From an uncultured Gemmatimonadota bacterium (GTDB lineage Bacteria > JAAXHH01): 64,000 nucleotides of DNA. Under the pieces are notes generated by a model, which was not told the origin of the DNA, made no database searches, and saw only the letters and a list, made by a program, of their open reading frames with translations. Below are positions 60,597 to 64,000 of this stretch, piece after piece (positions within the stretch are counted from its first letter, which is position 1; every line of letters begins with the position of its first letter). The translations under genes and the position numbers were made by a program. The DNA lies in NCBI GenBank assembly GCA_951812955.1, contig OX638340.1, positions 704,001 through 768,000 of the forward strand, read 5' to 3'.

Positions 60597-62384
60597 ATGC
60601 GAAAAAGTATCAAGCACATCCTCTTTCTCGAACCGAAATCCTCCCATCTGCACGTGTATTCGGACGCGTACATTCCGCGTATCGGCTGCCTGGTGCTCGC
60701 GACGATCATGCGGAAACTGGGTTACGGCGTGCGGGTGATGCTGGAAGAAGTGGAGGAGATCGATACCAACGAGTTCGGGGAAGCCGACCTGATCTGCATA
60801 TCCTCCCTGACCTCGACGGCGCCCGGGTCCTACCAGTACGCCGATTTCATCCGGAACGTCTATCCGGAAAAGACGATCGTGATGGGCGGGACGCACCCGA
60901 CTTTCGTACCCGATGAAGCCCTCCAACACAGCGATTTCGTGGTGCGCGGCGAGGGGGAGGAAGCGCTGGTCGAGCTGGTCAAGTGCCTGGAATCCGGCGC
61001 CGACTACCGCGGCATCGCCAATCTCTCCTGGGTGGAAGACGGCCAGGCGATCCACAATCCGGAGCGACCGAAGGCGGAAGACCTGGACGTGCTGCCCATA
61101 CCGGACTTCAGTCTGGTTCCTTCCGGCCGACTGGATATCATGTCGATACAGACACAGCGTGGCTGCCCGTGGGACTGCAGTTTCTGCACAGTGACCAAGT
61201 TGAACGGGCACAAGTTGCGCGGCCATTCGGTCGAACGCGTGCTCGATATGCTGGAAGCCTATACGAAGATGCCGAATTTCAGCTACCTCTTTTTCGCAGA
61301 TGATATCTTCAACGTGCCAGTGGATCGCACCATGGCCATCATGCAGGGCATGATCGACCGCAGGCTGACCATACCGTGGGCCGCGCAGATGCGCCACGAA
61401 ATCTCGAAGCAGCCGGAGTTGATGAAGAAGATGCGCGAGGCGGGATGTGACCGCGTGATGATCGGTTTTGAATCCATCGACGAAACGGCCCTCGAGCTGT
61501 ACGGCAAGAAAGAGACTGCGCTGGACGTAGAACGGGCCATCGACGCGATCCATGACCACGGGATCGATCTCCACGCCATGTTCATTGCCGGCGCAGATTC
61601 GGATCATCCGGAAACCATCAAGACGCAGTTCGAATTCGCCAAGAAGAAGGACCTGGCGACCTCGCAGTGCATGATCCTGACGTATCTGCCCGGTTCCGAA
61701 GACACCATCCGTTACGATCTCCAGGGCGGCGAGTACCTGAGCCACGACTGGAGCCACTACGACGGCCACCATGCCAATCACCCCGTCCCGAACATGACCC
61801 GTTACGAACTGGTCAACACGGTGATGGAAGGCATGAAGGGGATGTACGCGCCGCACCGTATCCTGTCCAAGCTGGGCAGCGCGGCATGGAACGCGGTCAA
61901 GTTAAACAAGCGGGAGGCTACGCGGCAACTGCGTAACGGCCTGCTCCGGCTGAACGGCTACTCCATCCTGCAGCGGTGGTTCACGGAGCACACCGACTAC
62001 CTGGCCGGTCTTCGCGCCGAAAACGTGTCTCTGTCACCGGATCGCTACAAGCGCGTGCTCCTGGCCGTTTCCAACGTGGACGTGAGCCGCGTGCTCCACA
62101 AGTTCCTGGACGAGATGAACATACGCGTAGAAGAATACAGCGAGGAAAAACTCTCCGCCCTCAAGGATTCCGACCTCGTCGTCATGGCGGGAGAGATGGT
62201 GGACGACGTGAGGGCCAAGGTCCAGAACCTGCACATCTTCCCGGTACACGACAAGAATACGCGTATGGACCGGACCCTGACCCAACTCGGCATCCTCTTC
62301 ACCGAGAACGTGGACAAGGTACGCGAGGCCATTGCCGCAGTGCACTTCCAGCCCGGCCAGAGCAAGGTGGCGGCGAAAAGTTGA
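60597..62384 (+). CDS. B12-binding domain radical SAM protein (class B) with a ~200-aa C-terminal extension
   Basis: N-terminal cobalamin-binding-like domain (DLICISSLTSTAP...), CxxxCxxC (RGCPWDCSFC), and a radical SAM core. AGGAG RBS. Confidence 0.85.
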   Translation: MRKSIKHILFLEPKSSHLHVYSDAYIPRIGCLVLATIMRKLGYGVRVMLEEVEEIDTNEFGEADLICISSLTSTAPGSYQYADFIRNVYPEKTIVMGGTHPTFVPDEALQHSDFVVRGEGEEALVELVKCLESGADYRGIANLSWVEDGQAIHNPERPKAEDLDVLPIPDFSLVPSGRLDIMSIQTQRGCPWDCSFCTVTKLNGHKLRGHSVERVLDMLEAYTKMPNFSYLFFADDIFNVPVDRTMAIMQGMIDRRLTIPWAAQMRHEISKQPELMKKMREAGCDRVMIGFESIDETALELYGKKETALDVERAIDAIHDHGIDLHAMFIAGADSDHPETIKTQFEFAKKKDLATSQCMILTYLPGSEDTIRYDLQGGEYLSHDWSHYDGHHANHPVPNMTRYELVNTVMEGMKGMYAPHRILSKLGSAAWNAVKLNKREATRQLRNGLLRLNGYSILQRWFTEHTDYLAGLRAENVSLSPDRYKRVLLAVSNVDVSRVLHKFLDEMNIRVEEYSEEKLSALKDSDLVVMAGEMVDDVRAKVQNLHIFPVHDKNTRMDRTLTQLGILFTENVDKVREAIAAVHFQPGQSKVAAKS

Positions 62385-62530
62385 TGAGGTGACGGTCGGC
62401 CAGCCTGCGGTTGATTCAATTTAGGTCGGTCAACCCCTGCCGTTAATTCGGTTTGGACCGTCTGGTAGCTGCTTCTGCTTACGACGGCACCTGTTGCAAT
62501 AACATCGATATACAGAAAGAGAGATCTACC

Positions 62531-62815
62531 ATGGCCGCGTACATTATCGTGGAATACGTCGTAACGGACGAGGATGCCTTCGCAGAGTTCAGCAAAAGGA
62601 CCGCAGCAGCCGTAGAAGCCCATGGCGGCAGGTATCTGGTCCGCGGCGCCGTGGAAGTCCTGGATGGGGATTGGACGCCGGAACGCATGGTCGTCGTGGA
62701 ATTTGAAAACAGCGACGCGGCGAGGGCCTGGCTGGACTCTTCGGATTACGCTGAACTCAAGGCATTGCGCCAGCGGGCTACCAGAGCCAGCGTGGTCTTT
62801 GCCGAGGGTGTTTGA
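62531..62815 (+). CDS. DUF1330 domain protein
   Basis: 94 aa. MAAYIIVEYVVTDEDAFAEF...GGRYLVRGAVEVLDGDW...VVVEFENSDAARAWLDS matches the DUF1330 pattern. Internal ATG 62531. Confidence 0.65.
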   Translation: MAAYIIVEYVVTDEDAFAEFSKRTAAAVEAHGGRYLVRGAVEVLDGDWTPERMVVVEFENSDAARAWLDSSDYAELKALRQRATRASVVFAEGV

Positions 62816-63088
62816 GCTGGACGGGCCGGTTAGTTCGAAAAGTGCCGGCCCGAATTGATGTCGTACATACAGCCCTGCCTGCAAATCCGTTCTGAGCAGT
62901 CCGCTCTAGCGGATTCAGTGAGATTCCTACCTCAGCCATACTTGAGCAATACCCCAGTCATTTACTGAGCCAATTCTGCATTTAGATCACGAATTTTGAG
63001 AAAATTTGGCAGGGAATTGGATTCCGACGATGAGGCGCGGTCTGTCCTCAGTGAGCCTTCTTAAGTTGCATTCAATCTGGCTGCCATG

Positions 63089-63286
63089 TCAGAACTGGTC
63101 AGATTGATTGAAGATGGCGCCATAGCGTATCGACATGGATGGCGAAATCGATCGACGTCCATGCACAATCTCATTAATTGGACGTGGTGCAACCCCGATT
63201 GCACGCGCCATGAAATTCTGCGAAATGCCCATCGGCTTGAGGTACTCCTCAAGTAGAACCTCGCCGGGTGTTATGGGTTTTTGCAT
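63089..63286 (-). pseudogene. HigA-family (XRE HTH) antitoxin-like gene, C-terminally truncated, with no cognate HigB toxin gene
   Basis: 65 aa. [59 protein letters not shown] matches the HigA N-terminal HTH pattern. It stops about 30 aa before the usual HigA end. Only 46 nt separate it from the next gene upstream. Confidence 0.45.
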
Positions 63287-63332
63287 AGTTATTCCTACTA
63301 CTGGAAACTACTGGTTTGGTGTACTACTAAGA

Positions 63333-64000
63333 CTAATTAACCAAATACCATTTTAGGTTCGAACCTGGAAGGTTAACTTTCACTTCCTTGAATTCAAGGA
63401 GATCCAGATTTCCTGTAAATTCACCCCGCAGTAAAACTCCTTGATCTTCATACGGTCCGATGAGAGAGTCTTCCTTATTGTCAAGTTTAATCTTCTTACC
63501 GTCTAAGGTTTCGAAAGTAATGTCCTTGAACTCTCGTGGCTTGCCAATGTCAGCCGTTGCATACACGTTTCCAAGCACCTGGTTTGCGTCCAGAGAGTAC
63601 CTTTGGGCCACAGACTCAGTCGTCGACCTTTGACTGTGCATCTCTATTGTTACCACTTCAACACCATCCTTATTGCGTCCCACAACACGTACAGGTTCTC
63701 CAAATGCTGAGACACGAGAATCGGTAACCGCTGCTATCCGATCATCAAGCAATGGATGTGTTCGGAACGCCGTAAGGTTCTTTCCATCTTCCCCTGTAAA
63801 GTAGTCCGAATAATACCGTAGTTTCCTCAATACCAGGCTAAAGGCATCGATGCCGCGCTGACCGTACAGCCGTTCCATGTACAATGCCGCCATCGCATCT
63901 GCTTCTTCCTCCATAGAGCGCGGATAGCCTTCATAGAAAACATCTGTAGCCGCTTTTGCGAATATGTATGTTAATCCTCCCAAGACCTGGATTTCGTCAT
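63333..64000 (-). CDS. M48-family (HtpX/BepA-like) metallopeptidase, C-terminal portion with an extra ~120-aa domain (N-terminus off window)
   Basis: YPRSMEEEADAMAALYMERLYGQRGIDAFSLVLRKL matches the M48 third-ligand SRxxExxAD...KL motif; ...THPLLDDRIAAV matches the HPxxxERIaal motif. The ORF has no in-window start and continues past 64000. It lies in the low-GC segment. Confidence 0.55.
   Translation of the reverse strand, partial: DEIQVLGGLTYIFAKAATDVFYEGYPRSMEEEADAMAALYMERLYGQRGIDAFSLVLRKLRYYSDYFTGEDGKNLTAFRTHPLLDDRIAAVTDSRVSAFGEPVRVVGRNKDGVEVVTIEMHSQRSTTESVAQRYSLDANQVLGNVYATADIGKPREFKDITFETLDGKKIKLDNKEDSLIGPYEDQGVLLRGEFTGNLDLLEFKEVKVNLPGSNLKWYLVN

Follow-up and report, generated by a model that had tools for sequence, protein, structure and literature searches.

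A nonsense-interrupted higA gene as the probable remnant of a decayed chromosomal toxin-antitoxin module in a variable slot of an uncultured bacterial lineage

Published surveys have found orphan antitoxins to be common, most of them being left over from degraded canonical modules (PMC7354431). Klebsiella, Mycobacterium and Acinetobacter genomes are among those surveyed for orphan or degraded antitoxin genes (reviewed in PMC7354431). The described systems closest to the locus presented here are the HigB/HigA modules, such as P. aeruginosa HigBA, P. putida GraTA and P. vulgaris Rts1 HigBA. The HigB of the relatives of this locus is a RelE-type toxin, and their HigA is taken to be an XRE-type helix-turn-helix (HTH) antitoxin and autorepressor. 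To our knowledge, Fic proteins are not part of the described higBA modules. Gene pairs of a repressor and a metalloprotease are also known from other systems.

In this work we analysed the low-GC end of a 64-kb window (the whole stretch of DNA that was studied), in which a higA gene carrying an in-frame stop codon lies between an M48 peptidase gene and a DUF1330 gene. The features discussed in the text are the following, by coordinates in the window and strand.

60597..62384, plus strand: radical SAM gene, B12-binding (Pfam B12-binding and Radical_SAM), part of the conserved backbone that bounds the slot
62531..62815, plus strand: DUF1330 gene (PF07045, 98.5 bits), of native-like GC, a variable occupant of the slot
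62816..62986, no strand: non-coding stretch separating the higA stop from the convergent DUF1330 gene; relatives have the Fic gene here
62987..63286, minus strand: higA pseudogene, with the 99-codon frame and the original stop kept and an in-frame TGA at codon 66
63089..63091, minus strand: premature stop TGA in the codon of the conserved Trp66, a single G>A transition
63092..63286, minus strand: the 65-codon ORF as it stands (63089-63286 with its stop in the ORF list), with helices 1-4 including the helix-turn-helix
63287..63332, no strand: spacer of 46 nt at the expected higB site, with a putative deletion junction
63333..64000, minus strand: 3' part of an M48 metallopeptidase gene (PF01435), 221 codons and the stop, running off the window; the whole gene would encode roughly 555 aa

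The 65-aa ORF matched the TIGR02607 antidote_HigA model with 70.4 bits (cutoff 47.7) over profile positions 1-65 of 81. It also matched the Pfam family HTH_3 (PF01381) with 27.9 bits (cutoff 23) at residues 12-59, which places an XRE-type helix-turn-helix in the product and confirms the HigA-type assignment made by an earlier sequence-only reading of this DNA. The closest solved structures are those of P. aeruginosa HigA, P. putida GraA and P. vulgaris HigA. The ORF ends 34 codons early, the intact homologs having 99 aa; this agrees with the earlier estimate of about 30 residues, and the alignment to a C-terminus in ...FGTSAEF proposed there also fits.

Past the stop codon, the minus-strand translation continues with the remainder of HigA in the same frame (...SDQF*HGSQIECNLRRLTEDRPRLIVGIQFPAKFSQNS*), which rules out a frameshift as the cause of the truncation. 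When the stop was swapped for Trp, the TIGR02607 match rose from 70.4 to 80.0 bits and its coverage from positions 1-65 to 1-79 of 81. The read-through product of 99 aa presented 74-81% identity to the intact homologs over 99-100% of the length, and most of these have exactly 99 aa. When six relatives were aligned at the nucleotide level, their higA genes had the same start codon and final stop as the window copy; codon 66 is TGA in the window and TGG in all six, and Trp66 is invariant in 39 intact homologs. The window copy is a pseudogene by a nonsense change and no deletion derivative. The gene had been called truncated, which is right as to its early end but not as to its content, since one in-frame stop interrupts a gene that has lost no coding DNA.

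The AlphaFold model of the closest ortholog, P0012 (pLDDT 77.6, moderate confidence), presents helices at residues 7-19, 23-30, 34-41, 49-58 and 63-80, and the fifth helix falls inside the region of homology to the solved HigA and GraA structures. On this model, the stop at codon 66 would take off nearly all of helix 5 and the tail, and the 65-aa ORF falls short of the complete HigA fold of five helices and about 95-105 aa. In annotation, the ORF should be flagged as a higA pseudogene and not as a short regulator.

The intact 99-aa higA orthologs share one chromosomal slot in related metagenome-assembled genomes, with a sulfatase gene on one side and the radical SAM and CarA genes on the other; the closest of them adjoin orthologs of the window's own radical SAM and CarA genes. 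The collinear backbone, derived from the HigA-bearing loci combined with the GTDB relative L004 (OZ253560), comprises Ala-racemase-like, SnoaL, PALP and sulfatase genes, the slot, and then radical SAM and CarA. Over about 8 kb of flanking genes, L004 has 78% nucleotide identity to the window. The radical SAM gene of the window, collinear with CarA, has 88-90% nucleotide identity to those of L018-L023 and 78% to that of L004. The sulfatase, PALP and SnoaL genes, which lie left of the slot in L018, L020 and L004, are not in the window, as expected if they are located beyond 64000. The earlier reading had allowed that equally short orthologs in a conserved context would speak against a decayed gene; the orthologs in this context are full length.

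The content of the slot differs in six ways among seven relatives, and the arrangements are as follows.

L004: M48 peptidase alone
Window: peptidase, higA pseudogene, DUF1330
L001: peptidase split by an IS3-family element, a second IS3, PrlF/MazE-like antitoxin gene, Fic remnant, DUF1330
L020: HigB, HigA
L018/L019: 5'-truncated HigB, HigA, Fic, DUF1330
L023: frameshifted HigB, HigA, Fic
L021/L022: as L023, with a nonsense change in Fic, and with an SNF2/PLD gene and a tyrosine integrase inserted on the left

The DUF1330 gene is thus found in the window, L001 and L018/19, and not in L004, L020 or L021-23. The higA of L021/L022 is 99% identical to that of L023 despite the insertion on the left side.

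In L020, the HigB gene is intact (92 aa; PF05015, 54.3 bits) and ends 31 nt upstream of higA. It is frameshifted in L021-23 and 5'-truncated in L018/19 and L030. L030 and L031 represent less closely related HigA homologs, located outside this slot; L031 has what looks like an intact HigB (about 88 aa aligned). The pairing of full-length homologs with HigB, for which a BLAST search had been suggested, is therefore real (L020, L031). In the L024-L029 lineage, an intact higA occurs without HigB and overlaps a glycoside-hydrolase gene by 4 nt. Across these loci, toxin loss with antitoxin retention appears as a recurrent event in this HigA family. The persistence of a solitary intact HigA in L024-L029 also means that the loss of HigB alone does not make higA dispensable. 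The Fic gene is located downstream of higA in L018/19 and L023, has a nonsense change in L021 and is reduced to a remnant in L001; since all these Fic genes belong to a single orthologous locus, they count as one event.

In the window, both partners of higA are missing. The spacer at 63287-63332 is followed directly by the stop codon of the peptidase gene (63333-63335), so that the 46 nt upstream of higA leave no room for a HigB gene, as had been claimed; HigB (PF05015) is not immediately upstream, and no HigB-like sequence was found in the whole 64-kb window (tblastn, best E-value 0.04). On the peptidase side, the spacer is homologous to the L001 sequence 3' of the peptidase down to 63301, and the homology to the higA loci of relatives starts at about 63297-63300, with only about 11-16 nt kept 5' of the ATG. 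On the other side of higA, an unmatched stretch of about 160-170 nt (62816-62986) corresponds to 1595 bp in L018/L019, which include a Fic gene of 349 aa. This stretch had no match in the six related loci compared (L001, L004, L018, L020, L021 and L023), and no Fic remnant was detected in the window by tblastn at E < 1; short-word blastn of the spacers gave neither a HigB nor a Fic remnant. Promoter- and terminator-like sites were not above the shuffled expectation.

The stop codon is not the only change in the window higA. At columns invariant in 16 homologs, it presents 10 private differences, nine residues and the stop (I10V, A25F, A36P, T48S, F55Y, F58I, stop at W66, F75L, P91F and L95F), while every other aligned HigA sequence presents 0-3 at such columns. 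These changes fall on both sides of the stop codon; in the P0012 model, helix 2 contains A25F and the predicted recognition helix A36P. The nucleotide identity of the window higA to its relatives is 77-84%, against 88-90% for the radical SAM gene, and among the intact relatives the corresponding values are 83-87% and 90-92%. The substitution pattern suggests relaxed constraint across the whole gene.

These data bear on the possibility that the TGA is a sequencing or assembly error and that the genome holds an intact solitary HigA of 99 aa, an orphan antitoxin or regulator as in L024-L029. In favour of an error, one substituted base accounts for the defect, the DNA probably comes from a metagenome-assembled genome, and related lineages do hold intact solitary HigA genes. 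One miscalled base, however, cannot yield nine further private substitutions, A25F and A36P among them, on both sides of the stop where other sequences have 0-3, and the nucleotide divergence of higA exceeds what the backbone leads one to expect. We consider such an error very unlikely; because of the nine further private substitutions at otherwise invariant positions, the TGA probably reflects real decay.

The segment is very probably the last decay stage of a chromosomal higB-higA (plus fic) module, located in a variable slot between the sulfatase operon and the radical SAM and CarA genes. The earlier suggestion of a decayed toxin-antitoxin remnant is supported by the 99-aa orthologs downstream of HigB in the same slot, by the TGG>TGA change and by the nine private substitutions. 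We infer the following order of events. An ancestor common to the window and the L018-L023 group would have acquired the higBA genes in the slot, with Fic riding downstream. Without selection to keep the toxin, higB would have been inactivated in several lineages, each time independently. In the lineage of the window, a deletion may have removed higB wholly, leaving about 11-16 nt before the higA start, and a separate deletion may have taken fic. The higA gene, with no toxin to neutralise, would then have drifted, since it was freed of its only known role, the neutralisation of HigB and the repression of the operon; it would have accumulated the nine private changes and later the TGG>TGA change at Trp66. 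The 65-aa product, which keeps helices 1-4 but lacks helix 5 and has a proline in the predicted recognition helix, is considered probably non-functional. The M48 peptidase would be an unrelated occupant of the same slot.

The closest relative of the window, L001 (93-96% nucleotide identity), lacks higA altogether; in its place are IS3 elements, a PrlF/MazE-like gene and a Fic remnant. One simple decay series is consequently too plain an account of the slot's history.

A bolder proposal goes beyond module decay: the slot could be a dedicated, tRNA-independent integration hotspot of this uncultured lineage, which is probably sponge-associated and Latescibacterota-like, and higBA-fic a functional three-gene unit in which HigA also controls Fic, and not a set of neighbours by chance. 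We regard this combination as unlikely. If true, the hotspot would repeatedly capture foreign cargo, namely the low-GC M48 peptidase, higBA, Fic, DUF1330, PrlF, IS3 and the integrase island.

The composition of the window's end led to another reading. The GC content of the last 1 kb is about 0.468, against a mean of 0.600 in the 63 preceding 1-kb intervals (sd 0.025, minimum 0.537), which corresponds to z = -5.3. At 200-nt resolution, the fall begins directly past the DUF1330 stop codon at 62815, and GC is 0.489 over 62816-63332 and 0.461 over 63333-64000. The drop reported earlier after ~62880 is therefore real, from 0.60 to 0.47 after about 62816. The GC3 of the segment is 0.45-0.54 against 0.70-0.80, an atypical composition of the kind used to recognise islands.

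The M48 peptidase gene accounts for most of this drop. Its 221-aa fragment matched PF01435 (Peptidase_M48) at residues 13-92, profile positions 122-183 of 186, with 24.4 bits (cutoff 20.3), and about 129 residues extend past the match, in agreement with the earlier description of a C-terminally extended M48 gene running off the window. The full-length orthologs have 555-556 aa and an N-terminal hydrophobic leader. The motif HEIAHVERRH (HExxH) is present in 14 of the 15 ortholog ORFs read, the exception being the L016 ORF, a C-terminal fragment of 193 aa that ends short of it; the corresponding position of the window's own gene lies beyond 64000. The window fragment contains the segment SMEEEADAMAA, conserved in all orthologs, one Glu of which we take to be the third zinc ligand, as in M48 enzymes in general. 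The full-length L004 ortholog matched PF01435 at 86 bits, in its central part only, and the solved structures closest to it are the M48 peptidase 3c37 (E = 1.5e-14) and BepA (E about 1e-8). The family is rare, with 11 clusters among 5.8 billion proteins, and occurs in 14 GTDB species, labelled Latescibacterota/Latescibacteria (11), Gemmatimonadota (two) and only 'bacterium' (one, L004); the relatives found in the GTDB species scan have at most 83% amino acid identity. Given its size of about 555 aa, its unannotated N- and C-terminal domains and its persistently low GC, it may be a minor lead for work on symbiont lineages.

The window peptidase has a GC of 0.463 and a GC3 of 0.452, compared with a GC3 of 0.70-0.80 in the neighbouring genes. 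The L004 ortholog has 0.456 for both, and there the low GC is confined to the gene (9001-11000 of L004), with flanks of about 0.56-0.58 on both sides. Of the 13 other orthologs, none falls more than about 4 GC points short of its flanks, and the L009 gene exceeds them. Nucleotide identity between the window and L004 is 78.7% for the peptidase and 78.1% for the flanking genes. Being as diverged from L004 as the flanking core genes, the peptidase is old and not a recent arrival, and its low GC is a long-standing trait common to the syntenic L004 ortholog. A donor of lower GC may have contributed the gene before the split between the window and L004 lineages, or it may have been kept AT-rich for other reasons. 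If the region is built as in L004, low GC should persist for about 1.0 kb past the window, up to the peptidase start, and give way to a sulfatase gene of normal GC.

It is therefore highly improbable that a large genomic island of recent origin begins at the drop and continues well beyond 64000, despite the strength of the composition shift and the mobile-type genes in the slot of relatives (the tyrosine integrase of L021/22 and the IS3 copies of L001). A large recent island is not indicated because the low-GC peptidase is old and syntenic, and because the L004 tract is that single gene, followed by the collinear sulfatase-PALP-SnoaL genes at GC 0.56-0.59. Moreover, no tRNA gene was found in the window or in the six related loci, the flanking direct repeats were only short and at chance level, and no integrase was found in the readable part of the window, so that of the three marks proposed for a check only the integrase appeared, and only at the L021/22 slot. 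The idea of a horizontal-acquisition boundary holds insofar as the slot is variable and contains an integrase or IS elements in relatives, but not for the peptidase. Annotators should not infer from the GC drop that a large island begins there.

A functional regulator-protease pair of the short HTH protein and the M48 peptidase, comparable to an XRE repressor with ImmA/IrrE and with the peptidase transcribed first, is barely credible: the two genes are on the same strand, 46 nt apart, and such pairs exist elsewhere, but HigA homologs are absent within 10 kb of the peptidase in all 14 other genomes that have it, the neighbours in the 10 genomes with readable downstream sequence are diverse with no conserved HTH, the L004 peptidase abuts the radical SAM gene directly, the HigA orthologs of relatives follow HigB or the sulfatase, homology to L001 is lost at about 63300, between the peptidase gene and the HTH gene, the only Pfam match of the peptidase at E <= 0.1 is PF01435 with no ImmA/IrrE-type model, and the HTH gene itself has a nonsense change. 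The pairing raised by the sequence-only reading, and its recurrence in other genomes (0 of 14), thus found no support, and the peptidase should not be annotated as a partner of the higA remnant.

Returning to the decay of a higBA module, the remnant is an ordinary one, left by a degraded toxin-antitoxin module in an accessory slot of variable content; all elements are of known kinds and only the uncultured lineage is new. Its direct importance is small, but it provides a clean and well-documented example of the death of a chromosomal toxin-antitoxin module. In the seven related genomes, the toxin would have been lost first, by frameshift, 5' truncation or full deletion, being retained in one, and the antitoxin would have outlived it and then decayed.

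Among known systems, the orphan antitoxins (PMC7354431) offer a close parallel, since here too an antitoxin is found without its toxin where relatives keep the module, and toxin inactivation precedes antitoxin loss. The difference is that the window antitoxin is itself already a pseudogene, which makes an anti-addiction or regulatory role unlikely.

The M48 gene shares the PF01435 catalytic domain with BepA/YfgC and 3c37, with HExxH in the L004 ortholog and EEEAD in the window fragment. It differs from BepA in about 230 N-terminal and about 130 C-terminal residues without a Pfam match and in having no TPR domain. Like the pairs of XRE and ImmA/IrrE (COG2856), the window has an HTH gene adjoining a zinc-metalloprotease gene on the same strand, but the protease is M48, the HTH protein belongs to the HigA family and the pairing is not recurrent.

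With the HigB/HigA modules of P. aeruginosa, P. putida and P. vulgaris, the window gene shares the match to the HigA equivalog and the XRE helix-turn-helix, and in its orthologs the toxin gene comes first, as is canonical, HigB ending 31 nt before higA. It departs from them in the lack of a toxin gene, in the interruption of the antitoxin at codon 66 and in its many private substitutions, and its relatives depart from them in the Fic gene located downstream.

The low-GC patch of the variable slot between the sulfatase gene and the radical-SAM/CarA genes (window 63333-64000; 9001-11000 in L004, a relative) corresponds to one gene, which encodes an M48 peptidase. The GC3 of this gene is 0.45, against 0.70-0.80 in its neighbours in the window, and its low GC has been kept in two lineages, those of the window and L004, whose nucleotide identity is 78%. 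Orthologs of the gene in other Latescibacterota have a nearly native GC. The features of the slot considered here are as follows.

L004:8996-10666, M48 peptidase, ~555 aa, with orthologs in L005-L015
L001:1032-4235 (closest relative; ENA ERZ25070917 contig, with 93-96% nucleotide identity to window 62711-64000), region of the split M48 peptidase gene and the IS3-type copies
within L001:4336-4836, PrlF/MazE-like antitoxin gene, 80 aa (PF15937 at 32 bits, PF04014 at 28 bits)
window 62453-62815, DUF1330 ORF, with possible starts at TTG 62453 (120 aa) and ATG 62531 (94 aa)

The peptidase family is rare, with 11 clusters in 5.8 billion proteins. The ~230 N-terminal and ~130 C-terminal residues of the protein presented no Pfam matches; the N-terminal part carries a conserved H...C-x2-C segment (…YHVASSNHLP…GMRPCGLCF). 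The next gene downstream in L010-L015 encodes a very large secreted protein that has a HELGHxFGLxHD metalloprotease motif, and in the L003/L016 genome the proteins encoded downstream present WD40-type Pfam matches.

In L001, the peptidase gene is split between positions 1191 and 2463 by a ~1.27 kb insertion encoding an IS3-family (rve) transposase, and the opposite strand carries a second IS3-type copy immediately downstream; the window gene is unbroken at the matching point (~63841). The position of the window higA pseudogene is occupied in L001 by the PrlF/MazE-like antitoxin gene, which is followed by short Fic-like remnants (tblastn E ~1e-7) and then by the DUF1330 gene. For the latter, the ATG is the more likely start in the window, because the Pfam match counted from it spans the full domain (residues 3-94) and because the annotated length in relatives is also 94 aa.

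L021 and L023, two relatives whose higA genes are 99% identical, differ by an integration into this slot that is very recent (L021:223-3622 compared with L023:1-311). The inserted SNF2/PLD-type gene and tyrosine integrase gene (PF00589, 62.7 bits) lie between the sulfatase gene and a frameshifted higB, with no tRNA nearby.

More distant HigA homologs were found at two kinds of loci.

L024-L029:3001-3300, P0128, intact HigA homolog, 99 aa, found on 18 contigs
L030:3458-4103 and L031:1170-1815, another HigA homolog beside a HepT/MNT toxin-antitoxin pair (PF01934 and PF01909)

P0128 is a conserved solitary HigA, with no HigB at L024-L029, and may have taken on another role. Its gene has a 4-nt overlap with the 3′ end of one encoding a 697-aa glycoside hydrolase (Alpha_L_fucos/GHL6), and the gene downstream of P0128 is of the DUF222/HNH type. 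The other homolog adjoins the HepT/MNT pair at both loci, and its neighbourhood in L031 also contains a Phd/YefM antitoxin gene; clustering of addiction modules is thus a feature of these genomes.
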